A program made the position numbers and the translations under genes. Source: Oscillospiraceae bacterium (lineage in GTDB: Bacteria; Bacillota; Clostridia; Oscillospirales; Oscillospiraceae). From it: a stretch of 56,889 bases of DNA. The DNA is taken from NCBI GenBank assembly GCA_902803575.1, contig CADCQK010000259.1, positions 1-56,889 on the forward strand. The letters run 5' to 3'. Shown one piece after another: positions 10,217-50,298 of the stretch; the first letter of the stretch is position 1, and each line of letters opens with the position of its first letter. The notes under the pieces were generated by a model. It worked only from the letters and a program-made list of their open reading frames with translations, did no database searches and was not told the DNA's origin.

Positions 10217-10281
10217 TTATAATAGTGACAAATGTGTTGTTTTTGTAACTATTTGGAAAAAGATGCAAGGAGGAAATGCCA

Positions 10282-33720: not shown

Positions 33721-34701
33721 TTACTTTTTCTCGCCCCCTACCGAGCCCTTGCCCTTGTAGAGCGTGAAATACTCCGGGCTGTCGCCCTTGGTGATGGCCC
33801 AGGCCTGCTCAAAGGCCTCCACCACGTCCTCCGGCAGCGGGCCGGCCTGGATGGTCTTCATGTTCTGCTGCAGATGGTTCAGCTTGGAGGCGCCGATGAG
33901 GATCGCGTCCCCCCGGTCGCCGTTCAGCATCGAATGATAGGCCAGCCAGCGGTAGGTGGCCTCGATGCTGGTAATGCCGTGCTTTGCCGCAGCGGCTTTG
34001 ATGAGATCCACCGCGTCAAAGAAGCTCTTCTTCCAGTAGCGTCCCTGATAGTTGGGCCGATGGGTGAACCGGCCGTCGGTGGGCGCGTCCGTATAGGAGC
34101 CGTACTTGCCTGTCAGCAGACCGCCGCACATGGGGTTATAGGCATAAAACCGCATGCCGAAATGGTTCAGACAGTCGTTGAGCTCCGCCTCGGCTCTGCG
34201 GGTCAGCGGATTGTAAACACCCTCGAAGACCGTGGGCTTCACCCAGCCGTGCCTGTCGCAGATGTGCCACACGTCGGTGACCATCCAGGCCGGGAAATTG
34301 GAAATGCCCAGTTCCTTGAATTTGCCCTGATCATGGAGATCCGCCATGGCCTCCAGAACGGAGATCACGGGCGTGGCGGGGTCCGGGAAATGCAGGAACA
34401 TGATGTCCGCGCAGTCCAGCTTCATCCGCTCCAGGCTCTCGTTGACCTGCATATAGGCCGCTTCCGCGTCCAGCTTGCCGGTGATGCGGGGATTCACCTT
34501 TCCCGCGATCTTGAAGGGCCGGTTCAGGTTCGGCAGCACCTCGCCCAGCAGCCGCTCGCAATTGCCCTCGTTATAAACATAGGCAGTGTCCAGCTCATCG
34601 TAACCCGCATCCAGAAATGCGTTGATAAAAGACTCCACATCCGGGGAAAACACGGATTCCCCGAAGGTCATGGTCCCAAGAATCAGTTTTACGTTGTTCA
34701 T
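33721..34701 (-). CDS. Aldo/keto reductase
   Basis: LGTMTFG, LDTAYVYNEG, HFPD and a LIGASKLNHLQQN-type C-terminus. The stop TAA abuts the next ATG. Confidence 0.85.
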   Translation of the reverse strand: MNNVKLILGTMTFGESVFSPDVESFINAFLDAGYDELDTAYVYNEGNCERLLGEVLPNLNRPFKIAGKVNPRITGKLDAEAAYMQVNESLERMKLDCADIMFLHFPDPATPVISVLEAMADLHDQGKFKELGISNFPAWMVTDVWHICDRHGWVKPTVFEGVYNPLTRRAEAELNDCLNHFGMRFYAYNPMCGGLLTGKYGSYTDAPTDGRFTHRPNYQGRYWKKSFFDAVDLIKAAAAKHGITSIEATYRWLAYHSMLNGDRGDAILIGASKLNHLQQNMKTIQAGPLPEDVVEAFEQAWAITKGDSPEYFTLYKGKGSVGGEKK

Positions 34702-34715: not shown

Positions 34716-36050
34716 TTATAGTTCCCTGATCAGGGCATCGACCGGGGCATCGGTCCGATATGCGGTTTGATAGACCGAATTGCTTGTGTCAGGCGAGATG
34801 CCGGCGTATTCCATCAGACCGTCGTAGCGCTCCCGGAATTCCCGGTCATCCAGCGGGTTTTCCGGCTCCCCTTTCGGGAAATCCACGCGGTCGGTGAAAG
34901 TGCCGTCCTTCGTGCGGATCGTGACCACCGCCGCCTGTACATCGGGGAACACGGCACTCAGCTCCGCATCCGCAGAAACCTTGACCTTTTGAGTCAGATC
35001 CAGGACCGCGGCGCCCTGCACAGCCTCCTCCGTGAACTCCTGCAAGCCCGCTTTCCCAAAGAGCAATCCCGCCGCCGTGGCGTAGGGGATGCTCATTTTG
35101 GCGCTGTAGCTGCCGGGGATCTCCGTATGGTCATGGCCGCTGACAGCGAGATCATAGGTCCGGATCGAAATCGATTCCACATCCTCCGGCTTCACCCTGC
35201 TGCGCAGATGGATCGCCGCCTCCACCGCAGGGTGGGTATAGCGGCAGGAGGCATAGGGCTTCGTATAAGACTTCATGATGGCATAGGTGCCATTCAAGAA
35301 CACCGGCTGCAATTCAACAGATTCCTTGCCGGTCATCATCTTCAGAAAGCCGCGGCCGCCCAGCGGGTCGCTGTGTCCTTTGAATCCGCTCCTGGCCAAT
35401 TGCAGCGCCGTGAGCGAAAGCAGCGCCGTCTTAGCCACATTATAGGGCTTCAGCTCACTGCCGTCATCCAGCACCTTCAACATGCCGCTGGCAGCCACAC
35501 AGGCACAGGCAAAGGCCTGAAACCGCTCCTCCTCCGAGAAGTCCAGCAGATAGGCTGCCGCCAGCGTTGCGCCCAGCGTGCCGCAGGTGCCGGTGGCGTG
35601 GTAGCCCATGGCCTTGTGCCCTGGCTGGATGGACACTGCCATGGTGTAGGACGCCTCATAGCCGGTTATCGCCGCCCGGAGCATCTCATCCACTGAAAAA
35701 CCATATCGCTGGCACAGCGGGATCAGCAAACTGAAGATCGGGCTTCCCAGATGGATGATGCCGGAGTTGGTGCCATCGTCAAAATCCAGCGCGTGCCCGT
35801 TCAGGCCGTTCAGAAAGACCGCTTCCTTCAGCACCAGATCCCTTCCGGTTCCGATGGCGCGGAAGGCGCCCTGCTCCGGCTCCGCGAAGGCGAAATAGCG
35901 ATCCAGCTTTTCTCTCTGGAATCTCGCCCCGGCGCAGGTCACAGCCAGATAATCCAGCAGGCTTCGACGCGCGCGGGCCATGACGGTCTCCGGAACCGGT
36001 TGATTCCACACGCCGTCAATGGCTTTCAAAAAATCGATCGATTGATTCAC
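34716..36050 (-). CDS. MmgE/PrpD family protein, paralog 1
   Basis: GTG start 7 nt after GGAGG. ARRSLLDYLAVTCAGA, ALDFDD and HLGSPIFSLL motifs, with the two-domain PrpD layout. Confidence 0.8.
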   Translation of the reverse strand: MNQSIDFLKAIDGVWNQPVPETVMARARRSLLDYLAVTCAGARFQREKLDRYFAFAEPEQGAFRAIGTGRDLVLKEAVFLNGLNGHALDFDDGTNSGIIHLGSPIFSLLIPLCQRYGFSVDEMLRAAITGYEASYTMAVSIQPGHKAMGYHATGTCGTLGATLAAAYLLDFSEEERFQAFACACVAASGMLKVLDDGSELKPYNVAKTALLSLTALQLARSGFKGHSDPLGGRGFLKMMTGKESVELQPVFLNGTYAIMKSYTKPYASCRYTHPAVEAAIHLRSRVKPEDVESISIRTYDLAVSGHDHTEIPGSYSAKMSIPYATAAGLLFGKAGLQEFTEEAVQGAAVLDLTQKVKVSADAELSAVFPDVQAAVVTIRTKDGTFTDRVDFPKGEPENPLDDREFRERYDGLMEYAGISPDTSNSVYQTAYRTDAPVDALIREL

Positions 36051-37981: not shown

Positions 37982-38728
37982 TCAATGCACAGACCGCGCT
38001 CTCAGGCGTCCGTAAATGCTGAACAGCTGGCGGTCCTCCACGTTTCCGGAAAACTGAAACGCATCGTCGCTCCGCGTCAGAATCATCTCCAGAGGAACCT
38101 CCGGCACCACCTCATGGCGGTAGTCGATGGCGGCGAAGGCCACCTCATACTGCCGCATGGCCTCGATCCCAAAGCTGTTGCACAGCCAGTCGGCATATCT
38201 CGCGTTGTTGACATGTCCATTGATGTCGATATCGGCGTATTGGGGCTGATGCCGAAAGCGCTTCTCTTCACCGGAAAGAGACTTGACGCCCATGGAGATC
38301 TTCACGGGCGGCACTGCCTCCTCCGCATCGGGGATCACAATGCCCCGTTCCGCCGGTGAGACCGCCTTTCTGGTGGTGCGGTCCATCAGCATCAGCAGTG
38401 AGCCGATGCGGACGATCACCGCCCCCCGCGCGTCCGTTACCAGATAGTATCTCGGACAGAACATGGAGCGGGAGCCCTTGGTGAAGGTTCGCACCGTGAC
38501 GCTTTCTCCGAGGCGCGGGTATCGATCCACATAGAGATCGGTCTTGAACAAAACCCATGAGAGATTCTGCTCGGTCAAATCATCATGCCACAGATGCATT
38601 GCAGCGCTGTGCTCGTTGGCCGTGCTCTGGGCCATCTCCAGAACGGAGCGCAGCATCCATTGGCCGTTGATGTCGCACTCACTGGTGCCAAGGTGAAATC
38701 GCTTTTCAAAAAAGGCCTGTGGATCCAT
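37982..38728 (-). CDS. Acyl-ACP thioesterase (FatA/FatB type)
   Basis: Starts MDPQAFFEKRFHLGTSECDINGQWMLRSVLEMAQ. Contains a NLSWVLFK motif and a second hotdog half with ADIDINGHVNNARY. Confidence 0.8.
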   Translation of the reverse strand: MDPQAFFEKRFHLGTSECDINGQWMLRSVLEMAQSTANEHSAAMHLWHDDLTEQNLSWVLFKTDLYVDRYPRLGESVTVRTFTKGSRSMFCPRYYLVTDARGAVIVRIGSLLMLMDRTTRKAVSPAERGIVIPDAEEAVPPVKISMGVKSLSGEEKRFRHQPQYADIDINGHVNNARYADWLCNSFGIEAMRQYEVAFAAIDYRHEVVPEVPLEMILTRSDDAFQFSGNVEDRQLFSIYGRLRARSVH

Positions 38729-38735
38729 GGTTATC

Positions 38736-40079
38736 TCACCCCCGGAGCCATTCCATCGGGTTGCAGAACGGTCGATCCGACGAAATCTCTCCGATTGCCC
38801 TCTGCAGTCCCGCAAGCTGAACCTCATCTGCGAGACCCTGGGCACATACCCGCAGCTTGGCAACGATGTCCTCTGCCGAAAGCGGATTCTCCGGGTCTCC
38901 CTTCGGCACCAGAACCGTCTGCTTCAAACGCCGGCCGCCGCTGGTCAGAATCTCGATCCTGGCGCCGCGGATGCCTCTGCTGCGATCCTCCATGGTTTCA
39001 TCCGGAATCAGCTGGATCCGGTCAATCATGGATCTGATCGAATCGGTCAGACGACCCGGCTGCATATCCTCAACACCGTAGCTGCCGTTCAGCAGGGCGC
39101 AGGCCAGCGTGTACGGGATGGAAAACTTGGTTTCATCCGGATCCCTGGGATACGGGATTCCGGCAAGCTTGATGGCATTGGGATAAATGAAGACGTTGAC
39201 CGTCCGAATCTCCTCCGCCTGCACCTGATCGTGCAGCAGGATCCCCGCGTCAATGCCGCAGTGGGTATGACGGCAGGAGGGATAGAGCTTAAAATAGCAG
39301 TCGTGCAGCAGCAGATGATCCGAGCCGCGCAGACAGCTTTCATCCACATGATCCGTCACGGCATGGAACCAGCCGTTTGGCCCCTCAAGAGACTCCGTGG
39401 GGCCAAGCATGCCTTCCCTGGCGAGCATCGCAGCGAAGATGCCGTTCTCTGCCGCCTTGCCTGGATTGAGCGGCTTGATCGCCGGTCTGGAATCTCCATA
39501 GGACAACAGGCCGCCGGACATGGTGGTGGCAAGAGCAATGGCGTTTTCAAGCCCATTCGCATCCAGGTGATACAGCCGCGCACAGGCAGCTGCACAGGCC
39601 AGAGTGCCTGCCATGCCGGTGGAGTGAAATCCGTGCTGCACCAGCCCGGGCTGCGCCGCCGAGGAGATGCGGATATACGCCTCATAACCCGCAGCGAGGG
39701 CCAGCAGCACGTCATTTCCGGTGCTGCCCAGCTTTTCTCCCAGGGCAAACACAGCGGGAATCAAATGCACGCCCGCGTGTCCGGCTGCCTTCTTGTTTCC
39801 GTCATCCAGCTCGGCGCCGTGACCATAGACAGCGTTCATAAAGGCCGCCAGTCGGGCGGGATATTTTGTTTTCTGAAAGAGCACCGTGCTCTCTGCAGCG
39901 CCGCCCTGCGCATACACCACCGTCTCCACCGCGTCGTTGAAGACCCGGTTCTGTCGATAGCCGGCGCAGGCAGCCGCGAAAAAGTCGGTGATCAGGATCT
40001 GCAGCTGCGATACATCCCGCTCTGAAAGGTTACAGATCGAAACAAGATCGCGCGCCAGTTCCGTTGTCATACCGCCCAT
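38736..40079 (-). CDS. MmgE/PrpD family protein, paralog 2
   Basis: ITDFFAAACAGY, ELDDGN, HAGVHLIPAVFAL, PSCRHTH and a PKGDPENPL motif near the C-terminus. Confidence 0.8.
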   Translation of the reverse strand: MGGMTTELARDLVSICNLSERDVSQLQILITDFFAAACAGYRQNRVFNDAVETVVYAQGGAAESTVLFQKTKYPARLAAFMNAVYGHGAELDDGNKKAAGHAGVHLIPAVFALGEKLGSTGNDVLLALAAGYEAYIRISSAAQPGLVQHGFHSTGMAGTLACAAACARLYHLDANGLENAIALATTMSGGLLSYGDSRPAIKPLNPGKAAENGIFAAMLAREGMLGPTESLEGPNGWFHAVTDHVDESCLRGSDHLLLHDCYFKLYPSCRHTHCGIDAGILLHDQVQAEEIRTVNVFIYPNAIKLAGIPYPRDPDETKFSIPYTLACALLNGSYGVEDMQPGRLTDSIRSMIDRIQLIPDETMEDRSRGIRGARIEILTSGGRRLKQTVLVPKGDPENPLSAEDIVAKLRVCAQGLADEVQLAGLQRAIGEISSDRPFCNPMEWLRG

Positions 40080-40108: not shown

Positions 40109-41380
40109 TTATGCCTTAGATTTTTTCGAAAGCTTCTTTCTCAGCTTCCGGTAATCTGCCTTATCGATGAACAGCATGGTTCGAAACGGGATCCCGGTGG
40201 TGCGGCAGAAATACACGATAAACAGGACAGAGCAGACCGCATAGGAGATGACGCTGGCGAGACCGGCGCCGTAGATTCCGGAGATTGGGATCAGGATCAG
40301 GTTTGCAACCACGTTGCTCAATACGCCGATCCCCAGCAGGACAAAGCTCACAACCTGCTTGCCCATGGCAATGTTGTAAGAGGCGATGAGCTTATAATAG
40401 ATCATCGAAAACACACCGGCGAGCAGGATCAATGTGACCTGATACGCGCCGCTGAACTCGCTGCCAAAGGCAAAATCAATGAAGGGCTTGCCCAGCGCGA
40501 TAATGCCCAGCACAATCACCAGACAAACCGTGTTGCTGATACGGATGACATACGCCGTCTCCCGGGCATCCTTGCCCTTGGCGATGTTGGAAACCATGAC
40601 GCCCTTCATGGCGTCGGGGATCATCCAGATCCGCTCCGCCAGAAGCACGCCGACGGAATACACACCGATGGCTGCATCCGCCACACGGCCGTTGAGCATC
40701 AGGACGTCTACCCGATAATTCAGGGTGGTCATCAGCAGAGAGAGCATCGGGAAAAAGCCGAATTTCACCAGCTTCGGGATCCAGATCTTCAAAGACTCCG
40801 AGGGGACAAAAAACCGCTTTCTCCACCAGCCGGTATAGATGAGTGCCTTGGCGACGTCCTTGATGGTGATGACAAACACACCGATGACGAAGGTGGGCTT
40901 CGCTGTGATCCAGAGGATGACCAGGATCACCAGCTCTGCGAACACCACGGCCATGTCTGAGACGCTTCGCTTGTTCGGCACCTCAATCAGCGTGATGTAA
41001 GAGACGATCTTATCGTAGGTCAGCAGCGGCGTGAGAATCAATACGGCGATGTATTTCGCAGGCAGGTCCATCACGGCGATCGCCGCCGCCGAAATTGCCC
41101 CGTAGAAGAGCAGCAGCAGCAGCGAGAGCTTCATGAAGATGGGCATGATATCCACATCGCTGTTGCGCTTGAAGTAGGGATAGGCGTGATAGATGCCCAG
41201 ACCGAACACGATGGAGGTGATGCTGACGATGCTGTTGACCGTCGCCACCTGCCCCTTAATCTCCGCGCCGAGGTATCGGGACTGGAAGATGGTGAAAACC
41301 AGGCCCACCACAACGCCGAACACTTTCGATATGACGGATAAGGAATATGCGTTTGTGAAGAACTTTTTAATTCCGCTCAT
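40109..41380 (-). CDS. Polysaccharide flippase (Wzx, MOP superfamily)
   Basis: About 12 predicted TM segments. N-terminus SVISKVFGVVVGLVFTIFQSRYLG is typical of the Polysacc_synt family. Confidence 0.8.
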   Translation of the reverse strand: MSGIKKFFTNAYSLSVISKVFGVVVGLVFTIFQSRYLGAEIKGQVATVNSIVSITSIVFGLGIYHAYPYFKRNSDVDIMPIFMKLSLLLLLFYGAISAAAIAVMDLPAKYIAVLILTPLLTYDKIVSYITLIEVPNKRSVSDMAVVFAELVILVILWITAKPTFVIGVFVITIKDVAKALIYTGWWRKRFFVPSESLKIWIPKLVKFGFFPMLSLLMTTLNYRVDVLMLNGRVADAAIGVYSVGVLLAERIWMIPDAMKGVMVSNIAKGKDARETAYVIRISNTVCLVIVLGIIALGKPFIDFAFGSEFSGAYQVTLILLAGVFSMIYYKLIASYNIAMGKQVVSFVLLGIGVLSNVVANLILIPISGIYGAGLASVISYAVCSVLFIVYFCRTTGIPFRTMLFIDKADYRKLRKKLSKKSKA

Positions 41381-41415: not shown

Positions 41416-42885
41416 TCAGGCAAGGGCGATCAGCTGCTTTCTGTCGACCTTACCGTTGTAGGTTCTGGGGATCTCCGTAAGCGGCTCGATGAACTTCGGC
41501 ACCTTATAGGCCTCCAGCTTGGCCGCCAGGAACTCCGCGATCTCTACAGCGTCGAAGCTGCAGCCGTCCTTCATGACGACGAACATCTTCAGGCTTTTCC
41601 CGAACATATTGTCATCAAAGGGGATGCAGGCGCAGTCGGCCACCTTCTCAAACCGAAGGAGCATATCCTCCACCTCGGTGGGCGCCACCTTGAATCCGCG
41701 GATGTTGACAACATCATCCCCTCTGCCGGCAAAGTGCAGACAGTGTCTGTCATCAAAGAACATCAGATCTTTGCCGTAGATGTATCCATCCTTCAGCACC
41801 GAGGCAGTCAGCTCCGGCTCATGATAGTAGCCGAGCATGTTCATATCGCTCTTAGAGCAGATCAGGCCTTCTTTGAAGGGCTCGGTGATCTCATTTCCGT
41901 TCTCGTCCAGGAGCTTCACTTCCACCGACGGATACGGCACGCCCAGGCTGTTGATGGTCTCCCCCGGCGCGTTGTACTGGCAGTTGCAGATGCTGCCGGT
42001 CTCACTGCTGCCGTAGCCCTGGTGAAGCCTGGTGTCCGGCAGAAGCTCCATGAGCGTCTCAATGTCCTTCGTGGGGAAGGGCGCGGAGGCAGTGTAAACA
42101 AACTCCAGCTTGCCGTTGAGTGCGGCCAGCTGCTTTTTAGCAAGGGTGATCAGCATCTTCACAGAGGCCGGCGGCAGATAGGTGTGGGTTACCCCATACT
42201 GATTGGCCAGCTGGAAAAACGCGCGCAGATTCTGCACCCCGTCCAGCAAGATCACGGTGCAGCCAACCGCCATGCACTGGTGTACCCGGTGCAGACCGCC
42301 CACATGGTTCAGCGGCGTGGTCACCAGGAACACAGAGTCCTCTTTGAGGCCGAAGGAAGGGTTGATCGCCGCCATATAGGCCTCAAGGCATTTGGAGGAG
42401 AGCATGACGCCTTTGGATTTTCCGGTGGTGCCGGTGGTAAAGATAATCTCCGAGCAATCCGGAGAGACCCCTGCCGGCGTCCAGTCGAAATCCGTCTCAC
42501 GGTCCATATCCACATCAGCAGCGGAGATCCAGTGAAACTCTCCTGCAGGCTGCTCGGGTGAGATCACAAACGCCGCATCCACAAAACCCGCGATATCGGA
42601 AAGACGGTCCACCGGGGCGCGGTTCTCCGCCGGGATATGCACAGCGCCGATGCCCAGCAGCGCATACTCGCAGACGATGTATTCCGCGCTGGGCGTGGCC
42701 ATGGACAGCACATGGCTGCCGGGTTTTACGCCTTTGGAAAGGAACCAGGCCGCTGCGGAACTGATTTTTTGATACAGCTCCTGATAGGTAAGGCACGCGT
42801 CGCCGACGACGAGCGCAAGCTTCTCCGGGGTCTCAATGGCATGCTGCCGGATCAGCCCGGTAACTGACAAGTGTTCCGCGTTCAT
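41416..42885 (-). CDS. ANL-superfamily adenylating enzyme (acyl/aminoacyl--carrier-protein or CoA ligase)
   Basis: SD GAGGTGA lies 8 nt before the ATG at 42885. AMP-binding motifs IIFTTGTTGKSKGV, YGSSETG and GKVDRKQL. Confidence 0.85.
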   Translation of the reverse strand: MNAEHLSVTGLIRQHAIETPEKLALVVGDACLTYQELYQKISSAAAWFLSKGVKPGSHVLSMATPSAEYIVCEYALLGIGAVHIPAENRAPVDRLSDIAGFVDAAFVISPEQPAGEFHWISAADVDMDRETDFDWTPAGVSPDCSEIIFTTGTTGKSKGVMLSSKCLEAYMAAINPSFGLKEDSVFLVTTPLNHVGGLHRVHQCMAVGCTVILLDGVQNLRAFFQLANQYGVTHTYLPPASVKMLITLAKKQLAALNGKLEFVYTASAPFPTKDIETLMELLPDTRLHQGYGSSETGSICNCQYNAPGETINSLGVPYPSVEVKLLDENGNEITEPFKEGLICSKSDMNMLGYYHEPELTASVLKDGYIYGKDLMFFDDRHCLHFAGRGDDVVNIRGFKVAPTEVEDMLLRFEKVADCACIPFDDNMFGKSLKMFVVMKDGCSFDAVEIAEFLAAKLEAYKVPKFIEPLTEIPRTYNGKVDRKQLIALA

Positions 42886-42917
42886 GTTTCCGATCACCTC
42901 TCCAAAACCAACTGGAA

Positions 42918-43154
42918 TTATTTTGCCTGCAGGGTCTCGATCATGCGGGCCATCGCGTCCACAGAATTGAAGTTCTCAGGCACGATCTCATCGATAGAGA
43001 TCTCAACGCCGAATTTTTCGCTCAGCGTCGTGATTAGGAGCATCAGCTCAAAGGAGTCGATGTAACCGCCCTCGATGATGTTGGTGATACCATCCAGGTT
43101 CTTGGTGGGTTTTACGTCATGCAGGATCTGCAAAACCTGTTCACGAGTCGTCAT
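42918..43154 (-). CDS. Standalone acyl/peptidyl carrier protein, DltC-like
   Basis: 78 aa. Phosphopantetheine site GGYIDSFELMLLI (Ser34). The overall pattern resembles D-alanyl carrier proteins. Confidence 0.8.
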   Translation of the reverse strand: MTTREQVLQILHDVKPTKNLDGITNIIEGGYIDSFELMLLITTLSEKFGVEISIDEIVPENFNSVDAMARMIETLQAK

Positions 43155-43170: not shown

Positions 43171-44457
43171 TCAAATTGTATTTCTTAAACGATTGGTGGG
43201 ATAAGCCATCTCACTGGCAGCGACACGACGCCGCTCGCCTTTTTCATGATACCCCTCGGTCAGGAACACGATGAAAAACAGCATATAGAAGGTTCCGTGG
43301 GTATGAGGCGTGAAGAACGACAGACCAATCAGGAAGGCCGCCAGCCAGAAGGACCAGCCGCGCAGATCGATCAGGCACTTCAGATAGAACAAATAGGACA
43401 GCAGCGTGCCGACAATGCCGAATTTGTACATGGTCGCGTTGAAGCCGGTCATGTGGAAATCCAGACCGGAGTAGTGGTCGGAAATGCCGAACACAAGCTC
43501 CCATCCGTGCATCTGGCGGATAAACTCATAGCCGCCCTCAACGCGTCCCGAGACGGCGTTCTTGTAGTCAGAGCCGCTGGAGAAGATGCGGATGACGCTC
43601 CGGTGGAAGAAATCGACCTTGAAAAACATAAAGACCAGCACGGCAGTGATCAGAAGCAGAATCGAAAGATTGCGAGGCTGCAGCAGCTTCGGCAGCAGCA
43701 GCTTGCCGTATCTCCGCTTCTCGCTGTTTCTGGACAGATACACCAGCCAGAGCAGCACCGTCGCGATGATGGCCATGCCAGAGGTGGAGAGGATCATGCC
43801 AGCGGACAGGAAAATTGCCTTCCGTTTTGCCCGGAACCCCGCTCCGGAATGGTAGATTTCATACACCAGCGGCGCGAACAGATAGATGAACATGTGAGAC
43901 GGCTCCAGGAAGAAAGCCGAAGGCCGGTAGAAGGAGATCGGTCGGCCGGTGATGCTGTATCGTCCGGTATTGGCAAGCTTGACCCACTGGTTGGCACTTT
44001 TCAGCAGCAGCGAGGTCGGCACCATCTTCAGATGGAAATGCAGCAGATAGTAGCAGAAATACTGCAAAATGATGCCCACACAGGCTGCCATTGAAATGAC
44101 CGTAGCGACTTTGATCACCTTTTTTGCCTCCAGACAACCGGACAAAAACGCCATCGTGAACACGAAATAAACCAGCACGAGGCCCATTTCGCTTGCGCTG
44201 GTGCCGTGGTCAATGATTTTATAAACTTGAAACAAATACAGTCCGCCGAACACATTCAGGCATCTGGACGACAAAACAGGACGGCCCGCAAATAAAGCCA
44301 AAACCAGAACCATGGCAAGTATGATAACGGTAACGCCGCCGTTGATCACACCCTTATAGTTCTGGAGGATCGGCGCGATCGCCACAGCGATCACAGCCAG
44401 TGTGGCTAAATTCAATACACGGGCCTGACTTCTGCCCCGCGTGATGCTTATCTTCAT
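43171..44457 (-). CDS. Wzy-type oligosaccharide repeat-unit polymerase / O-antigen ligase-like membrane protein
   Basis: About 10-12 TM segments, with a periplasmic loop RPSAFFLEPSH typical of polymerases. Confidence 0.65.
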   Translation of the reverse strand: MKISITRGRSQARVLNLATLAVIAVAIAPILQNYKGVINGGVTVIILAMVLVLALFAGRPVLSSRCLNVFGGLYLFQVYKIIDHGTSASEMGLVLVYFVFTMAFLSGCLEAKKVIKVATVISMAACVGIILQYFCYYLLHFHLKMVPTSLLLKSANQWVKLANTGRYSITGRPISFYRPSAFFLEPSHMFIYLFAPLVYEIYHSGAGFRAKRKAIFLSAGMILSTSGMAIIATVLLWLVYLSRNSEKRRYGKLLLPKLLQPRNLSILLLITAVLVFMFFKVDFFHRSVIRIFSSGSDYKNAVSGRVEGGYEFIRQMHGWELVFGISDHYSGLDFHMTGFNATMYKFGIVGTLLSYLFYLKCLIDLRGWSFWLAAFLIGLSFFTPHTHGTFYMLFFIVFLTEGYHEKGERRRVAASEMAYPTNRLRNTI

Positions 44458-44541
44458 TCTTTCGGTTTCCCTCCATCATTTCTCAGACTGACCGACCGGC
44501 GCGCCAGCCAGCGCTCCCCATCCGGTAAACGCATGGCGGCG

Positions 44542-45105
44542 TCAGGATCCGTGCCGTTGATCGAACCGTTCCCATTCCGCAGCAGCCACCTCCGGGGGCA
44601 TCTGCTGTTTTTTGAACGCGACCGTCTGGTTCTTGCTCATTTTCCGAAGCGCCATGAACATATCAAAGCGCCCGGTGGGCTTGGCGGGAATGCCGGAGGC
44701 AATGGAGTTTTCGGGGATATCCGACGCCACGACGCTTCCGGCGGAGATGATGCAGTTGCGGTTGATTCTCACATTCGGCATGATGATGACGTTCATGGAG
44801 ATATAGACGTTGTCCATCAGCTCGATGCACCCGAGCTTTTCCCGATAACCGAAGTCCGCGTCGGGATCGCAGCCCTTCAGGAAGTTGTTGATCATGTCGT
44901 GGGGAGACAGGTGGGCGCTTTTGTGCACGACCACGTTGTCATGGACCCGGATCAGCTTCGCGTGCAGCGGCAGCAGCCAGGGACCCCACTTGACATTCTC
45001 GCCCATGTGGTCGAAGAGATTGTGCTTGCGAATATAGTCCGCACGCTTGCGGGCGGAACGGCACAGCAGCAGACGGATGCTGTGATAGAGTCTTGCAGCT
45101 CTCAC
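44542..45105 (-). CDS. Hexapeptide-repeat (LbH) acetyl/acyltransferase
   Basis: GTG start 7 nt after GGAGG. Hexapeptide run IELMDNVYISMNVIIMPNVRINRNCIISAGSVVASDIPENSIASGIPAK. Confidence 0.8.
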   Translation of the reverse strand: MRAARLYHSIRLLLCRSARKRADYIRKHNLFDHMGENVKWGPWLLPLHAKLIRVHDNVVVHKSAHLSPHDMINNFLKGCDPDADFGYREKLGCIELMDNVYISMNVIIMPNVRINRNCIISAGSVVASDIPENSIASGIPAKPTGRFDMFMALRKMSKNQTVAFKKQQMPPEVAAAEWERFDQRHGS

Positions 45106-45148
45106 GTAGATTCCTCCATTTTCAGATGCGCATCATGCGCTGCGGGTC

Positions 45149-45172
45149 GATGCTTCTCAACGTCGAAGCATC
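45149..45172 (-). other. Perfect 8-bp inverted repeat (intercistronic stem-loop)
   Basis: GATGCTTC-8 nt-GAAGCATC, overlapping the stop codon of the sugar transferase gene. Confidence 0.4.
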
Positions 45173-45875
45173 AGGAATGGGGCTCCGGCATTTCCTCCGG
45201 TCTCGGCACGGTGCCGGCTTCCCACTGGGCCTTTCGGTAATCCCAGAAAAGCTCCTGCTTGCCGGCCTCGATGATGTCCGCGTGCTTGAACACCTTGGCC
45301 ACCGTCTGAAACAGGATCTTCACATCCAGCCAGAAGGAGACATTCTCAACATAGTAGAGATCGTATTCAAATCGCTTGTCCCAGCTGGCGGCGTTTCTGC
45401 CGTTGACCTGGGCGAGTCCCGTCAATCCCGGCCGGACCGCATGGCGGCGGTGCTCCGCAGGGGTGTAATACGCCAGAGCCTTTTTGTTCCAGGGTCTGGG
45501 GCCCACAAAGCTCATGTCCCCTTTCAGGATGTTCCAGAGCTCCGGAATCTCGTCCAGGCTGGTGGCGCGCAGCATCCGTCCGAACTTGGTCATGCGCTGG
45601 GCGCTGGGCAGCAAGACACCGTTCTCGTCCACATCGTTGGTCATGGAGCGGAACTTGCAGAGGCCGAACAGCTTTTCCTTGCCGGTCTTGGGGTCGATTT
45701 TGCCGGGACGCTGGTGAACAAAAATGACCGGTGAACCGAGATTCACCTTCACCAGGATCGCCACGATGGCGTACAGCCAGCAGAACAGGATCATTGCAAC
45801 AACAGACAGGACAATGTCGAATAACCGCTTAACGACATTGTTATAAAACTTATGCCTGGGTTCGAGTGTTTCCAT
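45171..45875 (-). CDS. Small monotopic phosphoglycosyl transferase (bacterial sugar transferase, PglC/EpsL/WbaP C-terminal type)
   Basis: KRLFDIVLS, SPVIFVHQRPG, KFRSM, DEIPELWNILKGDMSFVGPRP and GLTGLAQVNGR motifs. ATG at 45875 preferred, with TTG at 45902 possible. Confidence 0.85.
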   Translation of the reverse strand: METLEPRHKFYNNVVKRLFDIVLSVVAMILFCWLYAIVAILVKVNLGSPVIFVHQRPGKIDPKTGKEKLFGLCKFRSMTNDVDENGVLLPSAQRMTKFGRMLRATSLDEIPELWNILKGDMSFVGPRPWNKKALAYYTPAEHRRHAVRPGLTGLAQVNGRNAASWDKRFEYDLYYVENVSFWLDVKILFQTVAKVFKHADIIEAGKQELFWDYRKAQWEAGTVPRPEEMPEPHS

Positions 45876-45898
45876 CACTGATTGACTCCCTTTTATAC

Positions 45899-47218
45899 TC
45901 AAGAATCAAAGAATCTCGTCGTGTCAAACGGCGCAAACAGCAGGCTCCGGCCGTCGGTGTCGTCCACCCGGACGTGCGCCTGGATAAAGTGGATCGTGTC
46001 GGCCATTTCCTCCAGGTCGTTGGCGCGGATCTTGAAGGAGATGACCCGCTGCTGGGTGGTGCCGCGGTCCGGGATGTTCTTCCCCACATAGACGTAGGGG
46101 CTGATATCCAGAACATTTTCCCGCCCGCTGACCGCGCTGTAATCCACGTTGCCGACTTCGCCTGCATGGGCATACATCACATAGGTCGCCATCTGCTCTT
46201 TCAGTTCCGGATTGTCCTTGGACAGCGAGTCTCCCATGGAGCCCGTGAGCGAATGGTGGATCATCATCTTCATGTGATTGATCCCGTTGCAGCGGCTCAG
46301 CAGCTTCCAGTCGTTGCCGCCATTGAGACGGAGGCCCATTTCAAAGGCGACGATCCGGTCATCCGTTGCGATGAACTGGAAGCCGGCGATGCCGTTTTTC
46401 ACGCCGATGTCCCGCAGCAGCGACTTGATCTTTTCATCGATCGTATCCCGGTAGCGCCTATAAAACCGCGACGGCGTGATGGCGATGTCACAGAGGGCAG
46501 CGTATTTCGTTCCCTCTCTGGAGAGGTACTTGTCGTTGATGATCGAAAGGCTGATCTCGCCGTCGGCAATGGTATAGATCGCTGTGATCTCCATGCCGGT
46601 CACATACTCCTCCACCACAACGGTGTGGGTTTCAGAGTTCTTTTCCGCAAAGGCCAGAGCATCGTCCAGCTGCTCCTCGGAGTCGCAGATCGTGATGCCG
46701 ATGCGTCCGCCGTAATCCGCCGGCTTGACGATGACCGGGTAGCGGATCGCGCTCCGGTCCAGTTCCGCCGCATGACCGTTTTTGCAGTACTCGGTGGGGA
46801 CCGGCACACCATGCTTTTCGCAGAGGTGCTTGAACGAGCGCTTGTTGCGCGTCAGCTCCACCTGCTCTGGGGTGACATAGAACGGTGTCCCCAGCAGCTG
46901 GGAGAGCCTGGCGGCATAGAACACCTTGCCCTCACTGTAGCCGGAGAACACACCGCTGACGCCCGCCTCGCGGCACTTGTGAACCAGCGTGTCCATGTCG
47001 GAATAGTCGATGTCCCACGCCTCATCAGCGATGGACTTCGCCGGGAGCTTCGAGTAGTCGCTCCCACGCTCAGTGACAATGGTATACACGCCCATCTCCC
47101 GCGCCTGGCGCACGATGTTCATCAGATTCGTCTCGCCGCCGATGATCAGCAGCTTCTTTCCTTTGGCCTGTTCAAACATGTATCTTTTTCCTTTATCCGA
47201 CTGACAGCGGTCTGTCAT
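45899..47218 (-). CDS. ATP-grasp ligase (439 aa)
   Basis: Pre-ATP-grasp KKLLIIGG, followed by KHGVPVP, YPVIVKPADYGG, VVVEEYVTG and FQFI...FEMGLRLNGG. ATGA overlap with the upstream gene. An alternative ATG at 47179 is possible. Confidence 0.75.
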   Translation of the reverse strand: MTDRCQSDKGKRYMFEQAKGKKLLIIGGETNLMNIVRQAREMGVYTIVTERGSDYSKLPAKSIADEAWDIDYSDMDTLVHKCREAGVSGVFSGYSEGKVFYAARLSQLLGTPFYVTPEQVELTRNKRSFKHLCEKHGVPVPTEYCKNGHAAELDRSAIRYPVIVKPADYGGRIGITICDSEEQLDDALAFAEKNSETHTVVVEEYVTGMEITAIYTIADGEISLSIINDKYLSREGTKYAALCDIAITPSRFYRRYRDTIDEKIKSLLRDIGVKNGIAGFQFIATDDRIVAFEMGLRLNGGNDWKLLSRCNGINHMKMMIHHSLTGSMGDSLSKDNPELKEQMATYVMYAHAGEVGNVDYSAVSGRENVLDISPYVYVGKNIPDRGTTQQRVISFKIRANDLEEMADTIHFIQAHVRVDDTDGRSLLFAPFDTTRFFDS

Positions 47219-48177
47219 TTTTTCAGGATCTTGACCTCATTGTATTTCATCATGTAGATCCCCTCATCGTAATCGCCGATGCGCTTTTCGTTGGCCCGGC
47301 CCTGCAGATTATTCAGGATCAGCTTCATGTGGTCGCATCCGGCCTCATAGGCGTGGGGATAACCGCCGCCGAAACGGGGGTTGACTTCGGAGATGTAGTA
47401 GACGCCGTCCACTTCGAAGATGTCAATGTCGATCTGGCCCCGGTAGCCGGCCTCCAGAACGAATTTCTCAATGAGGGCAAACAGCGCAGGGTCCTTGAAG
47501 CTGACCGCCTTGTCCGTCTCACCGGCCCGCATCAGCAGCTTTTTCTTCGTGAAGATCGAGACGACCTCCCCGCTGATCATGTCGATGTAGACGTCCGCGC
47601 CGATCTCCTGCCCGTCCAGAAACTCCTGGATCATCAAATCATTACGCTGCCGGTAGAGCAGATCGATGGTCTCCCGGTCATAGACCTTGGAGATGCTGAT
47701 GGAGGCAGAACCCCGATAGGGCTTGACAAAGACGGGATAAGACACCAAACCGGACTCCACAGCCCGGTAAAACGCCTCCGGCTCTCTCCAGGATCTGGCG
47801 CAGTGATAACCGTGGTCCGTGAGCCACCGGAACATCTGCATCTTGTCCAGAGACATCTCGCAAAGCTCATAGGAGCTGCCGATCACGGTGGTGCCGACAG
47901 CTTCGAACAGAGACGCGTTTTTCGCCAGCAGACTCAGCTCCGGGTCGATCAGACTCAAAACGCCGTCGATCTGCTCCTTGCGGCAGATGTCCAGAATCAC
48001 GTCAATATAGCCCGGAGCCGTGATGGGCGGAACAATATAGTGCTTGTCGGCATCATAGATTGCAGGCCCGAAGGGACTTGCATCCGTCGCTACAATCGTA
48101 CCGACGCCGGCAAAGGCGGCTTTGAAATACTGGACAACTTTATCTCTGGTGCCAGCGGCCAGAATCAGAAAATTCAT
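47215..48177 (-). CDS. ATP-grasp ligase (320 aa, carbamoyl-phosphate-synthase L-chain-like)
   Basis: MNFLILAAG, YPVFVKPYRGSASI, MIQEFLDGQEIGADVY and ISEVNPRFGGGYP motifs. Confidence 0.8.
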   Translation of the reverse strand: MNFLILAAGTRDKVVQYFKAAFAGVGTIVATDASPFGPAIYDADKHYIVPPITAPGYIDVILDICRKEQIDGVLSLIDPELSLLAKNASLFEAVGTTVIGSSYELCEMSLDKMQMFRWLTDHGYHCARSWREPEAFYRAVESGLVSYPVFVKPYRGSASISISKVYDRETIDLLYRQRNDLMIQEFLDGQEIGADVYIDMISGEVVSIFTKKKLLMRAGETDKAVSFKDPALFALIEKFVLEAGYRGQIDIDIFEVDGVYYISEVNPRFGGGYPHAYEAGCDHMKLILNNLQGRANEKRIGDYDEGIYMMKYNEVKILKK

Positions 48178-48189
48178 TTATCTGTTTCC

Positions 48190-49500
48190 TCACTGAAAGC
48201 ATCTGTGAATGATATCGATCACGACATCCTGCTCGGCCGGCGTCATCTTGTTGTCGCTGGGCAGGCACAGGCCCCGTCTGAAGATGTCCGCGCCCACGTC
48301 CACGATCTTGCCGGAGATATAGGCGTTGGTTTCGCCGCGGCCGTTTCCTTCCGCAGTCACGAATGCATTCGTGCGGTAGATCGGCTGCATATGCATGGGC
48401 TTCCAGATCGGACGGCCCTCGGCGTTGAAGGCTGCCAGCGCATCCAGAATCTCCTGAGGGGAACTCTTGCCGGGCTCTGTCTGATAGAGATAATCCCGCT
48501 CGCCGCGCACCATGGGCGCCATGGCTGCCTCATCGATGATCATGCAGCTGAGCCAGAAGTTCGGGATGCACTTGTCCGGATCCCAGGGATTCATCTGTAC
48601 CGGAAGATCCTTCAGCCCTTCAGCATAGCGCTCCCAGACGGCCCGCTTCTGTGCGATGTGCGCGTCCAGATAAGGGGTCTGCCCTCTGACCACGCCGGCA
48701 ATGATATTGCTCATGCGGTAGTTATAGCCGACTTCCTCATGCTGATACCAGGGGGCATCTTCGCGGCTCTGGGTGGACCACTTTCTCACCTTATTGGCAT
48801 CCTCCAGACTGTCGGTCAGGAACATGCCGCCGGCGCTGCCGGTAATGATCTTGTTGCCGTTGAAGGAGATGCAGTTGTAATCTCCGAGGGCGCCGGTCTC
48901 CACCCCCTGGCCGTTCAGCTTATATTTGGCGCCGAGACTCTCGGCCGCGTCTTCGATGATCAGTGCGCCGTGCTTTTCGGCGATGGCCTTGATCTCCTGC
49001 ATCTTCGCGGGGGTGCCATAAAGGTGCGCCACCACGATGAGTCTGACCTCCGGGTAAAGCTCAAAGGCCTTTTCCAGCGCCTCGGGGCTCATGTTCCAGC
49101 TGTCATACTCCGTATCGATGAAAACAGCCTCGCCGTCTTCATAGGCCACCGGATTGACGCTGGCGTCGAAGGTGCAGTCAGAACAGAAGACCCGGTGCCC
49201 GCGGAGGGTACCCTCGTTGGGTCTTGCCTGGCCGTAGAGCTTTTCCCCTGCCAGCTTCGTGGCAAGATGCAGCGCCGCAGTTCCAGCGGAGAGCGCCACA
49301 GCGTACTTGCAGCCGATGAAGGCCGCCAGCTGCTGCTCAACCTCGTTGATGTTCGCGCCCACGGTGCTCACCCAGTTGGTGCGGATGGCGTCATCCACCC
49401 ACTTCTGCTCCTCACCGTGCATGGTCGGCGTGGCAAGCCAGACTTTGGATTGGAAAGGCACGATGCCGGAAAACCTGGGGTCTGTTAAAAATCGATTCAT
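48190..49500 (-). CDS. DegT/DnrJ/EryC1/StrS family PLP-dependent sugar aminotransferase
   Basis: SAGTAALHLA, IIEDAAESLGA, SFNGNKIITGSAGGM (PLP lysine) and GYNYRMSNI motifs. ATG at 49500 preferred over the track start at 49563. Confidence 0.85.
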   Translation of the reverse strand: MNRFLTDPRFSGIVPFQSKVWLATPTMHGEEQKWVDDAIRTNWVSTVGANINEVEQQLAAFIGCKYAVALSAGTAALHLATKLAGEKLYGQARPNEGTLRGHRVFCSDCTFDASVNPVAYEDGEAVFIDTEYDSWNMSPEALEKAFELYPEVRLIVVAHLYGTPAKMQEIKAIAEKHGALIIEDAAESLGAKYKLNGQGVETGALGDYNCISFNGNKIITGSAGGMFLTDSLEDANKVRKWSTQSREDAPWYQHEEVGYNYRMSNIIAGVVRGQTPYLDAHIAQKRAVWERYAEGLKDLPVQMNPWDPDKCIPNFWLSCMIIDEAAMAPMVRGERDYLYQTEPGKSSPQEILDALAAFNAEGRPIWKPMHMQPIYRTNAFVTAEGNGRGETNAYISGKIVDVGADIFRRGLCLPSDNKMTPAEQDVVIDIIHRCFQ

Positions 49501-49635
49501 GTTACATACATCCCAACGATCGTAGTTTTTGTGTGAAATCTGCGTCTGCGGATCGAGCCGCATGCCGCGAAAGAGAAGTCTATTCCGGCCGCACGGTGAT
49601 TCCGCGCAGGCACTAACAAATCATCCGCTCCATCC

Positions 49636-50298
49636 TCAGCGGTTTTCCACCACAGAGAGGAGTTCGGCGTGGATCTCATCGATCCCCCGCATTTCGCCCG
49701 CCCGGCTGCAAAGGACGGTTTTCCAGCCCAGCCGGTTGGCACAGTATTCCGCGGCCTTCCGGGAGCGGTCCAGATAGGCGAGGTTGCTTTCATGGATATC
49801 TTTTCTGCTCTCGTCACCGTGATAGCGCCCGGTCATCAGCTTCTGGCTGACCTCCGGCTCCACCTTCAGATAGAACACCAGATCCGGCGCAGGGATCCCC
49901 AGCAGCCGATATTCAAACTCGAACAGCCAGTCAAGATAGCCGTCCCATTGCTCCTCCGGAAGCTTGGAGCACTGGTGGATGGCGTTGGAGGTCGTATAGC
50001 GGTCGGCAACGATGATGCCGCCTTTCTGATAGAAGCCGCCCCAGTCTTTCTTGAACGAGGCGTAGCGGTCCACCGCATAGAAGGAAGACGCGGCGTAGGC
50101 ATTCACATCCCCGGGGTCGCTGCCGAAGGCGCCGCTCAGATACATCTTGATCAGCGCCGAGGAATCGCTTGCGTAATCCGGGAAAGACACGGCCCGTACT
50201 GCGGTATCCCGGCTTTGGAGTGCCTCGTAAAGAAGCTTTGCCTGTGTTGCCTTTCCACTGCCGTCCAAGCCTTCGATCACGATCAGTTTCCCGCTCAT
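49636..50298 (-). CDS. tmk: Thymidylate kinase
   Basis: LIVIEGLDGSGKATQ P-loop, VSFPDY and DRY motifs. Confidence 0.85.
   Translation of the reverse strand: MSGKLIVIEGLDGSGKATQAKLLYEALQSRDTAVRAVSFPDYASDSSALIKMYLSGAFGSDPGDVNAYAASSFYAVDRYASFKKDWGGFYQKGGIIVADRYTTSNAIHQCSKLPEEQWDGYLDWLFEFEYRLLGIPAPDLVFYLKVEPEVSQKLMTGRYHGDESRKDIHESNLAYLDRSRKAAEYCANRLGWKTVLCSRAGEMRGIDEIHAELLSVVENR

Follow-up and report, generated by a model that had tools for sequence, protein, structure and literature searches.

A Wzx/Wzy-type operon without a Leloir glycosyltransferase, and its linked acid-attachment genes, in an Oscillospiraceae bacterium

Wzx/Wzy pathways are taught as building oligosaccharide units with Leloir glycosyltransferases (GTs). 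An operon on contig CADCQK010000259.1 of an Oscillospiraceae bacterium (assembly GCA_902803575.1) carries genes for an initiating transferase, a predicted Wzx-type flippase and a Wzy-like protein, and it includes no gene for a GT of this kind. What, then, could serve as the lipid-linked unit of such an operon? We address this question using the whole stretch of 56,889 nucleotides (the window), its scaffold flanks and related loci. The GT-free module is a conserved architecture and not an accident of one genome, and the system represents a Wzx/Wzy pathway variant whose initiating sugar would be a decorated one of the bacillosamine/AAT type. To a more specific reading we give about an even chance, namely that the product made and exported by the operon is a lipid-linked, heavily N- and O-acylated 4-amino-4,6-dideoxy-N-acetylhexosamine (HexNAc) to which no further sugar is added, and that the Wzy-like protein joins these units.

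One operon and its missing glycosyltransferases

The operon comprises 19 genes on the minus strand and extends for ~20.5 kb, from 49563 to 29023. Intergenic gaps are 0-85 nt at most junctions, and the only strong terminator within 27.8-47.7 kb (28987-29016) is located directly 3′ of the last gene, where it could also serve a convergent plus-strand gene. Because of these tight gaps and the lone strong terminator at the 3′ end, the block at 43171-49563, to which a preliminary description of this DNA was devoted, is the 5′ third of one operon. The gene calls of that description (DegT, two ATP-grasp proteins, an initiating transferase, LbH, Wzy-like and Wzx) were all reproduced. It had named the genes of the block and overlooked the carrier protein, the AMP-ligase, the acid cassette and the rest of the operon to 29023, and its interpretation needs to be widened to the whole operon. 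The features are as follows.

48190..49563 (-): DegT/DnrJ/EryC1 aminotransferase, 457 amino acids, first gene of the operon; PF01041, 228 bits
47215..48177 (-): ATP-grasp protein AG2, 320 amino acids; PF21360 (PylC-like_N) and ATP-grasp_3
45899..47218 (-): ATP-grasp protein AG1, 439 amino acids from an ATGA start or 426 from 47179; several ATP-grasp Pfam families
45171..45902 (-): small monotopic PglC-type phosphoglycosyl transferase (PGT), 234-243 amino acids, likely start 45875 with a Shine-Dalgarno motif; Bac_transf, 205 bits
44542..45105 (-): LbH acyltransferase, 187 amino acids; Hexapep
43171..44457 (-): multi-transmembrane protein of predicted Wzy/WaaL fold, 428 amino acids; without Pfam or NCBIfam match
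42918..43154 (-): carrier protein, 78 amino acids; PF00550 (PP-binding), 25.2 bits, cut-off 20.8
41416..42897 (-): AMP-binding adenylating enzyme (AMP-ligase), ~490 amino acids; PF00501, 213 bits, and AMP-binding_C (PF13193)
40109..41380 (-): predicted Wzx-type MOP flippase, 423 amino acids; profile-profile match to Polysacc_synt flippases
38736..40079 (-): PrpD2, second MmgE/PrpD-family protein; Pfam
37982..38863 (-): acyl-ACP thioesterase-like protein, called as 248 amino acids, start near 38728; PF01643 and PF20791
36103..37938 (-): lipoprotein, 611 amino acids, lipobox LVTGC
34716..36050 (-): cassette gene 1, PrpD1, MmgE/PrpD-family dehydratase, isomerase or decarboxylase; Pfam
33721..34701 (-): cassette gene 2, aldo-keto reductase (AKR); PF00248, 191 bits
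32590..33720 (-): cassette gene 3, fused thiamine diphosphate-dependent decarboxylase, homologue of phosphonopyruvate decarboxylase (Ppd); TIGR03297
31651..32559 (-): cassette gene 4, predicted U32-like TIM-barrel protein, 302 amino acids
30436..31581 (-): cassette gene 5, PF15617 'C-C bond lyase of the TIM-barrel fold' (CitE/HpcH-like); 375 bits
29023..30373 (-): cassette genes 6 and 7, Fe-S (class I) fumarase/tartrate dehydratase-type hydro-lyase, beta subunit 29864-30373 and alpha subunit 29023-29889; PF05683, PF05681
28987..29016 (-): intrinsic terminator, 13-bp stem and T run; ends the operon
26427..27968 (+): LCP (CpsA-like) glycopolymer-peptidoglycan ligase, convergent neighbour; PF03816, and NF051849 below cut-off

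The preliminary description had seen neither a GT nor a 4,6-dehydratase between 28 and 50 kb, and this absence was upheld. A Pfam scan of every plausible open reading frame (ORF) in the window revealed no GT1, GT2 or GT4 domain and no Polysacc_synt_2 or other short-chain dehydrogenase/reductase (SDR) dehydratase. Hidden Markov models (HMMs) were also built from genes of related loci for GT4 (as three clusters), GT2, GT32, CapD-type dehydratase, SDR epimerase and UDP-glucose dehydrogenase (UGDH), and none had a match at E<=10 in the six-frame translation of the 56.9 kb. The flanks of the window (9.5 kb and 6 kb beyond its ends, taken from the 147-kb scaffold_238 of ENA ERZ1049550) likewise carry no GT or dehydratase upon Pfam annotation and hold housekeeping genes only. 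The sole Leloir GT in the window is TagA of the WecG family (3896-4621, minus strand), which stands alone among housekeeping genes 40 kb away. The preliminary description had reasoned on the condition that the locus is self-contained. It is not: there is no counterpart here of the 4,6-dehydratase gene that directly precedes an orthologous DegT gene in sister loci.

The initiating polyprenyl-phosphate PGT is present in the operon. Its Bac_transf match covers model positions 1-179 of 179, it has one N-terminal hydrophobic segment, and TIGR03025 matches with 239 bits over the catalytic domain only. The 423-amino-acid protein is predicted to be a Wzx-type flippase. It has ~10 hydrophobic segments and weak HfsF and MATE matches, and a profile of nine sequences aligns with canonical Polysacc_synt flippases over 372 columns (hhalign probability 97%, E=1e-10). 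A protein with 82% identity to this flippase is present in a sister locus, L093.

There are 239 database homologues of the Wzy-like protein, none of which has a precomputed Pfam domain, and the protein founds a family without a Pfam model. In an alignment of 50 sequences there is an invariant FYRPSAFFLEPSH-type motif (R178, E185, H188) together with invariant R290, R305 and H387, and three of the 50 members have weak Wzy_C matches. A PDB sequence search with the family profile yielded no match, and an hhalign comparison of the family with two Wzy_C proteins gave no signal. When the AlphaFold2 (AF2) model of the protein (pLDDT 89.5, pTM 0.90) was compared with the PDB using Foldseek, the top match was the O-antigen ligase WaaL (7tpg_B, probability 1.0, TM-scores 0.48/0.51) and the second was FtsW. 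The WaaL-fold match and the conserved residues point to a putative Wzy/WaaL-fold enzyme acting on glycans linked to undecaprenyl diphosphate (Und-PP), and the fold alone is compatible with a polymerase or a ligase. The Wzx and Wzy-like genes and the accompanying PGT of the preliminary description were each recovered in this way, Wzx by profile-profile comparison, the Wzy/WaaL fold by AF2 and Foldseek, and the PGT by its Bac_transf domain.

Modules without glycosyltransferases in related loci

A metagenome scan with the Wzy-like family alignment found 57 loci. For comparison of gene content, we used the 15 metagenome loci that are at least 13 kb long and encode a Wzy-like protein at least 32% identical to that of the window, with a flank of up to 10 kb on each side. 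None of these 15 loci has a GT4, GT2 or GT32 gene. All of them encode a PGT, 14 encode DegT, 12 carry the acid cassette and eight a CapD dehydratase, and most also have a flippase. The GT-free layout, from which the preliminary description drew an unusual route to a Wzy-dependent polymer, recurs in all 15 with respect to these three families. Among more distant Wzy-like relatives, with 30% identity or less, most adjoin GT4 or GT2 genes, and because of this difference between close and distant relatives, the GT-free design is best regarded as a property of the Wzy-like clade rather than of one genome.

Gene tables of individual sister loci have the same character. A PGT, an ATP-grasp protein and the Wzy-like protein are listed for L083-L088 and L091-L094, in most cases together with DegT and the cassette, and GT4, GT2 and GT32 genes are all missing from these tables; within the modules of eight sister loci, the Pfam gene tables include no GT of any family. 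The neighbourhoods of relatives of the 302-amino-acid cassette protein, found in Clostridium sp. GCA_015548445.1, Butyrivibrio and metagenomes, exhibit the conserved seven-gene cassette. Upstream of it are the genes for DegT, PGT, Wzx, an ATP-grasp protein and either a Wzy-like or a Wzy_C protein, among which no GT gene is interspersed.

The loci of three relatives of the Wzy-like protein agree with this. L091 begins with Wzz, two bacterial tyrosine kinases (BY-kinases), UGDH, PGI, DegT, an unknown protein, a FemAB-like protein, PGT and ATP-grasp, and continues with the Wzy-like protein, carrier protein, LbH, AMP-ligase, LysR and then the cassette. L093 encodes a CapD dehydratase, SDR, DegT, PGT, ATPgrasp_ST, ATP-grasp, an unknown protein, a FemAB-like protein and the Wzy-like protein, followed by the carrier protein, LbH, AMP-ligase, Wzx, thioesterase, LysR, DctM and then the cassette. 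In L095 the order is GT4, GT4, Wzy_C, CapD, Wzz, DegT, PGT, ATP-grasp and Wzy-like, and then an insertion sequence (IS) element.

In five distinct sister contexts, BY-kinase genes occur no more than ~10 kb upstream, and the L095 module itself includes a Wzz gene. The loci with one or both of these genes beside the module are L091/L105, L101/L102, L107, L108, L109 and L095, and the presence of BY-kinase and Wzz genes beside several sister modules argues for a polymer. An LCP gene is next to the cassette in L089 as well as being the neighbour of the operon here, and a link between LCP and the system is plausible from this placement.

At the position of AG2, L091 (5848-7904), L093 (7906-9971) and relatives have a FemAB-like transferase and a 336-338-amino-acid protein without a clear Pfam domain. 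The replacement of AG2 by this type of aminoacyl-tRNA-dependent transferase is consistent with an aminoacyl step and with peptide-like side chains.

Three predicted acid-attachment systems and a seven-gene cassette

The DegT protein matches a LegC-family NCBIfam model below its cut-off. Among the 80 genome loci surrounding the best AG2 homologues (L003-L082), DegT orthologues with 45-82% identity occur in 62, often just after a gene for a CapD/PglF-type dehydratase, and in L093 a 76%-identical DegT directly follows the dehydratase. Because the dehydratase partners orthologous DegT in sister loci, the enzyme here is presumed to be a UDP-4-keto-6-deoxy-HexNAc C4-aminotransferase.

AG2 matches NCBIfam NF009406 with 506 bits and the PDB entry 2pn1 with E=2e-86, and probably adds an amino acid or a small acid to the sugar 4-amine. 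Its relatives occur in 267 reference species, and the best 80, at 69-85% identity, are mostly from Clostridia but also from Selenomonas, Elusimicrobia, Prevotella, Lentisphaeria and a spirochaete. This scattered distribution indicates horizontal spread. The sequence of AG2 has also diverged much less than those of its neighbours, and this points to repeated horizontal transfer of a ligase with a fixed function. The usual order in the 80 loci is CapD/PglF-type dehydratase (31 loci), DegT, PGT (70 loci), a variable enzyme and AG2, and then GT4/GT2 genes and Wzx; an ATP-grasp gene next to a sugar aminotransferase and a PGT is found here and in 60-70 of the 80. The variable gene just upstream of AG2 encodes a pyridoxal phosphate-dependent enzyme (31 of the 80 loci), a GNAT protein (29), an ornithine/diaminopimelate decarboxylase (10), a class I aminotransferase (8) or a 2-hydroxyacid dehydrogenase (7). 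When only the 44 loci with full 10-kb flanks are counted, 27 have a dehydratase upstream of an orthologous DegT gene, the arrangement that is also seen in eight of the 15 long Wzy-like loci. AG2 is thus a widespread part of a module for initiating with a decorated amino sugar, and the amino acid or small acid that it probably adds would be supplied or capped by the products of neighbouring genes.

The best PDB matches of AG1 are the PurD-like protein 4dim and the L-amino-acid ligase 3vot. ATP-grasp proteins that are 31-47% identical to AG1 adjoin the Wzy-like gene in L088, L091 and L093, and AG1 belongs to the ATP-grasp class that accompanies the acid cassette. The two ATP-grasp genes had been described as ATGA-coupled, and the overlap does exist in the sequence at 47215-47218. 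Translational coupling is possible and not certain, because the gene caller of the source assembly starts AG1 39 nt further on. This alternative start (426 amino acids) is preceded by an AAAGGA Shine-Dalgarno-like motif that is better than that of the ATGA start.

The ATP-grasp proteins had been put forward as the enzymes that attach acids, a role that is presumed here too, and a third carboxylate-activating system, comprising the AMP-ligase and the carrier protein, had been overlooked. The carrier protein has a DltC-like size and a DSF motif, and its gene is among those annotated in the source assembly. The AMP-binding enzyme is below the cut-off for every specific NCBIfam model and is presumed to load the carrier protein. 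This pair resembles the Dlt-type system (DltA/DltC), wherein a ~490-amino-acid adenylating enzyme is likewise encoded beside a 78-amino-acid carrier protein with a DS(F/L) motif in a surface-polymer locus. However, the partner transferase here is the soluble LbH protein and not an MBOAT (DltB) or LPLAT protein, and no ORF has an MBOAT (DltB-type) match; the co-inherited transferase is LbH. Other acylation systems that use a carrier protein are AlmEFG of V. cholerae and the RfbK/RfbL acyl carrier protein-ligase pair for tetronate on perosamine.

NCBIfam and PDB matches of LbH are confined to the LbH repeat region of O- and N-acetyltransferases of the LacA/Mac/WbbJ/DapH/QdtC type, and the score against the NeuD/PglB/VioB model is 43.8 bits, with a cut-off of 160.8. 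In 11 of 11 loci with LbH homologues of at least 56% identity, the carrier protein and the AMP-ligase are also present, and in loci that lack this pair LbH is either absent or less than 41% identical. Because of this co-inheritance and the nature of the matches, LbH is assigned to the carrier-protein system and not to PglD-like N-acetylation, and we propose that it uses an acyl- or aminoacyl-carrier protein as its donor. The PGT, LbH and DegT genes had been compared as a trio to pglC-pglD-pglE and epsL-epsM-epsN. This analogy fails for LbH, which does not have the PglD/EpsM-type architecture and co-varies with the carrier protein and the AMP-ligase. What the operon does share with the Campylobacter PglF-PglE-PglD-PglC and B. 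subtilis EpsC-EpsN-EpsM-EpsL sets is the pairing of a small PglC-type PGT with an aminotransferase of the DegT family. Those sets act on a 4-keto sugar derived from UDP-HexNAc to initiate with di-N-acetylbacillosamine, whereas the locus here has no dehydratase and N4 is presumably acylated by the ATP-grasp proteins instead of being acetylated.

The order of the seven cassette genes is conserved: PrpD, AKR, Ppd-like decarboxylase, the 302-amino-acid protein, PF15617, FumB-like and FumA-like. The preliminary description proposed that diversity comes from amide-linked acids, and a dedicated acid cassette that travels with these modules fits that idea. PrpD1 has 59-74% identity to its counterparts in sister loci, and copies of PrpD2 with 65-72% identity occur in L003, L029, L100 and L127. 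The Ppd homologue scores 397.6 bits against TIGR03297 (cut-off 312.5), and its best PDB match is 9iz3, a putative phosphonopyruvate decarboxylase alpha/beta pair. The PF15617 protein has weak CitE and RipC matches, and the hydro-lyase is matched by TtdA, TtdB and FumA models mostly below their cut-offs. In L093, a LysR regulator and the DctM subunit of a TRAP transporter are encoded just upstream of the cassette.

There are 5328 homologues of the U32-like protein, forming 995 cluster representatives. Identity is 84-95% for the best 120, and no source name other than 'peptidase' is listed. Weak PF01136 matches were obtained for 30 of 41 diverse members, and a PDB sequence search with the protein gave no match. 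The AF2 model (pLDDT 94.6) is a TIM barrel for which Foldseek lists class II aldolases, the U32 protein 5d88 (Mk0906) and barrels of the isocitrate lyase/phosphoenolpyruvate (PEP) mutase (ICL/PEPM) type at TM-scores of ~0.45-0.5, which signify generic similarity only. Thus, the protein is predicted to be a TIM barrel distantly related to the U32 family. Two more specific roles were considered. A UbiU/UbiV-type Fe-S, O2-independent hydroxylase was rejected, as four cysteines that are suggestively spaced in the window copy are not conserved in the 41-sequence alignment. The ICL/PEPM-type matches are no better than those to class II aldolases, and PEP mutase is retained only as a reading of low probability. 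The window also contains a canonical U32 peptidase-family protein (726-2039, minus strand, 308 bits) in addition to this divergent barrel.

The cassette seems to apply logic like that of the tricarboxylic acid cycle to a 2-oxo or C4 dicarboxylic acid to yield a hydroxy-carboxylic acid. Oxaloacetate is isosteric with phosphonopyruvate. Perhaps the PF15617 protein or the U32-like barrel forms a C-C bond, and PrpD and the hydro-lyase cause isomerization by dehydration and rehydration. The Ppd homologue would then decarboxylate and the AKR would reduce the intermediate to the hydroxy-carboxylic acid, which an AG1-class ligase would attach. It is also possible that the product is a genuine phosphonate or sulfonate. 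The gene for the Ppd homologue, which is above the TIGR03297 cut-off, directly adjoins that for a reductase, as in early phosphonate routes via Ppm, Ppd and PhpC to 2-hydroxyethylphosphonate, and ~83% of Ppm neighbourhoods encode Ppd (PMC8942020). In contrast, the reductase here is an AKR and not an iron-dependent alcohol dehydrogenase, and the neighbours of the Ppd homologue are PrpD, CitE-like and fumarase-like enzymes and a TIM barrel. No PEP mutase was seen in the Pfam scans and gene tables of the window and of the sister loci that have such tables, and no dedicated search was made of the six-frame translation or of L097-L153.

At 6673-8943 (minus strand), 20 kb from the cassette, there is a gene for an aconitase-family protein whose C-terminal domain is matched weakly, and the divergent neighbour of this gene encodes an FMN-dependent alpha-hydroxy-acid dehydrogenase (9067-10086, plus strand). 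The lipoprotein upstream of the cassette has no Pfam, NCBIfam or PDB match. A protein with 89% identity is present in L003, and among the loci examined only these two, and no metagenome locus, have it. Its CSSF and SHVCMIVG motifs recall Cys-His enzymes of the papain or NlpC/P60 type.

What the operon may make

A pathway can be drawn for the one-sugar polymer. A UDP-HexNAc 4,6-dehydratase encoded elsewhere in the genome would generate a 4-keto-6-deoxy sugar, which DegT would convert to the 4-amine. AG2 and AG1 would then form amides, wherein AG2 probably places an amino acid or small acid on N4 and AG1 adds the cassette product, either to N4 or to the first residue. The PGT would move the sugar-1-phosphate onto undecaprenyl phosphate, and the AMP-ligase, carrier protein and LbH would add a third acyl or aminoacyl group. 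After Wzx flips the decorated unit, the Wzy-like protein would join the units head to tail as a one-sugar repeat, or, less likely, would ligate single units to an acceptor. Only O3 or a side-chain hydroxyl would be free to act as acceptor. Finally, the LCP enzyme may attach the product to peptidoglycan.

The proposal that the repeat unit is a single amino sugar had been made in the preliminary description. It is favoured by the conservation of the GT-free locus and is made plausible by precedents for N-acylation of a UDP-4-amino sugar by ATP-grasp enzymes. One of these is Pyl of B. cereus (PMC11626204; PMC8987622, with the title of Hwang et al. 2014 as cited) and another is PglB2 of Neisseria, wherein the activity occurs beside a PGT (PMC11130364). 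In the UDP-yelosamine genes of B. cereus ATCC 14579, an aminotransferase (Pat) is likewise followed by the ATP-grasp enzyme Pyl beside a small monotopic PGT, and those sources describe Pyl as linking 2-oxoglutarate by an amide to UDP-4-amino-6-deoxy-HexNAc. The operon here differs in having two ATP-grasp proteins and a carrier-protein system, with Wzx and the Wzy-like gene inside the module, and its acid apparently comes from a dedicated seven-gene cassette and not from central metabolism. In the searchable literature we found no description of the gene combination of the module, of the function of PF15617 or of one-sugar Wzy units. Canonical Gram-positive Wzx/Wzy capsule loci, which also have several GTs and CpsC/D, share with the operon the PGT, Wzx, the Wzy/WaaL-fold protein and the adjacent LCP gene, to which sister loci add Wzz and BY-kinase. 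The operon differs in having no cytoplasmic glycosyltransferase and in its Wzy-like protein, the clade of which is tied to GT-free modules; the O units of E. coli are reported to have two to seven residues (PMC7685785).

Several observations weigh against the one-sugar polymer. The 72 kb of scaffold that were searched contain no dehydratase gene, and the sugar precursor is therefore assumed. The window has no Wzz or BY-kinase. The HMMs for GTs span only GT4, GT2 and GT32, and other GT families in the metagenome loci could escape them. At least one GT is present in 40 of the 44 AG2 loci with full 10-kb flanks. The top structural match of the Wzy-like protein is a ligase and not a polymerase, in a PDB search that gave no Wzy polymerase for comparison.

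A further observation of this kind comes from the closest relative, L003, in the rumen metagenome-assembled genome RUG342. AG1 (93%), PGT (98%), LbH (96%) and the five cassette genes within the flank (89-98%) are nearly identical to those of the window. However, the Wzy-like protein, Wzx and DegT of the window are not found within 10 kb, and positions 1121-8448 of L003 instead encode a GT2, a Stealth protein, a 451-amino-acid membrane protein, a Polysacc_synt Wzx, Acyl_transf_3 and UGDH. The Stealth protein is of the hexose-1-phosphotransferase type. As judged from these identities, L003 is a clear recombination mosaic in which a middle segment was swapped and the remainder of the operon is ~90-98% identical. 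Since AG1, PGT and LbH are paired with GT2 and Stealth, the same decorated sugar may also be able to start a conventional oligosaccharide, and it is not intrinsically a stand-alone unit.

These data bring to mind an alternative that we consider unlikely, in which the operon only decorates the initiating Und-PP-sugar, GTs encoded elsewhere (by TagA or another locus) extend it, and Wzx and the Wzy-like protein then handle the product. The locus already depends on an unlinked dehydratase, L003 couples the AG2-AG1-PGT-LbH genes to a GT2 and a Stealth protein, AG2 is normally found in GT-rich capsule loci, and GT4-GT4-Wzy_C genes are located just upstream of the module in L095. However, the 15 long loci have their own PGT, and most their own flippase, without any GT4, GT2 or GT32 gene, and the gene set, GT-free as here, is retained by modules of unrelated genomes. 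Moreover, TagA is encoded 40 kb from the operon, among housekeeping genes.

The other serious alternative, which we likewise find doubtful, is that the Wzy-like protein is a WaaL/PglL-type ligase or an O-oligosaccharyltransferase (O-OTase) that transfers single sugars from Und-PP to a protein, to teichoic acid or to some other glycan, in the manner of the monosaccharide glycoforms of Neisseria. Possible protein acceptors include the SLH or S-layer proteins whose genes are nearby. The best structural match is WaaL and the window has neither Wzz nor BY-kinase, although a fold search cannot separate Wzy from WaaL. The separate canonical Wzy_C protein encoded beside the L095 module also counts in its favour. 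The Neisseria pgl system, comprising PglB2, a flippase and an O-OTase that act on a trideoxyhexose, offers a working precedent (PMC11130364). It has a dehydratase, an aminotransferase, ATP-grasp acylation of the 4-amine, a PGT, a flippase (PglF) and an enzyme that uses Und-PP-glycan (PglO/PglL). PglB2 is an ATP-grasp/PGT fusion that gives glyceramido-acetamido-trideoxyhexose, and monosaccharide glycoforms exist (PMC11130364). That system differs in being Gram-negative, in targeting protein, in the fusion of ATP-grasp to PGT, and in having no acid cassette or carrier-protein system, and its sugar is usually extended by the GTs PglA, PglE and PglH. Transfer of single sugars is also disfavoured by the BY-kinase genes in five sister contexts and the Wzz gene inside the L095 module, and by the LCP ligase gene that is adjacent here and in L089. 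LCP enzymes carry out the final attachment of polymers in Gram-positive bacteria.

It is highly improbable that the genes at 29-43 kb are a separate phosphonate or peptide-like natural-product cluster abutting a truncated glycan locus: the Ppd homologue is above its NCBIfam cut-off, and the AMP-ligase, carrier protein and thioesterase are typical of such clusters, but the Pfam scans and gene tables list no PEP mutase for the window or for the sister loci that have such tables, acid genes are intermixed with glycan genes (Wzx being between the AMP-ligase and PrpD genes), the cassette accompanies PGT, DegT and Wzy-like genes in 12 of the 15 long loci, and the one terminator is at the end of the operon.

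Returning to the one-sugar polymer, a bolder version can be offered quite tentatively, in which the Wzy/WaaL clade polymerizes a one-sugar repeat bearing a peptide or an acid, with the acid made by a cassette whose Ppd homologue works without PEP mutase. If this were true, the product would be a secondary cell-wall polymer with a logic closer to that of peptidoglycan (ATP-grasp or FemAB side chain, flipping and polymerization) than to that of a capsule. The cassette would then make a hydroxy acid by a new decarboxylation route of the oxaloacetate type, or else lead to a compound with a C-P or C-S bond without the help of PepM, and the PF15617 protein or the U32-like TIM barrel would supply the substrate.

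A conserved, horizontally shuffled module without GTs would extend the assembly logic of surface polymers, in that diversity would reside in the acids joined by amide and ester bonds to one amino sugar, and a Wzy-like clade that Pfam does not cover would be given a function. Gut and rumen Clostridia commonly carry the acid cassette, whose U32-like member alone has more than 5000 database relatives. If the cassette, with its two uncharacterized TIM-barrel families and a partnerless Ppd homologue, were solved, thousands of genes could be annotated. In these abundant commensals, the product is probably a surface antigen.

Among the neighbouring genes, that for thymidylate kinase (49636-50298, minus strand) has the same orientation as DegT, from which it is separated by 72 nt on the upstream side, and may share a transcript with the operon. 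A pyruvate kinase homologue (28020-29000, plus strand) of just 326 amino acids is encoded between the operon terminator and the LCP gene. This protein consists of the barrel domain without the C-terminal domain and passes the TIGR01064 cut-off. It was rejected as a member of the pathway, being on the opposite strand and not present in the sister loci examined. No pyruvyl transferase was seen in the window. Two surface proteins with SLH domains, an S8 protease (10276-13872, plus strand) and an NlpC/P60-SH3 protein (21087-23258, plus strand), are also encoded there, and together with the isolated TagA they suggest that this organism has a separate secondary cell-wall polymer to which SLH domains bind.

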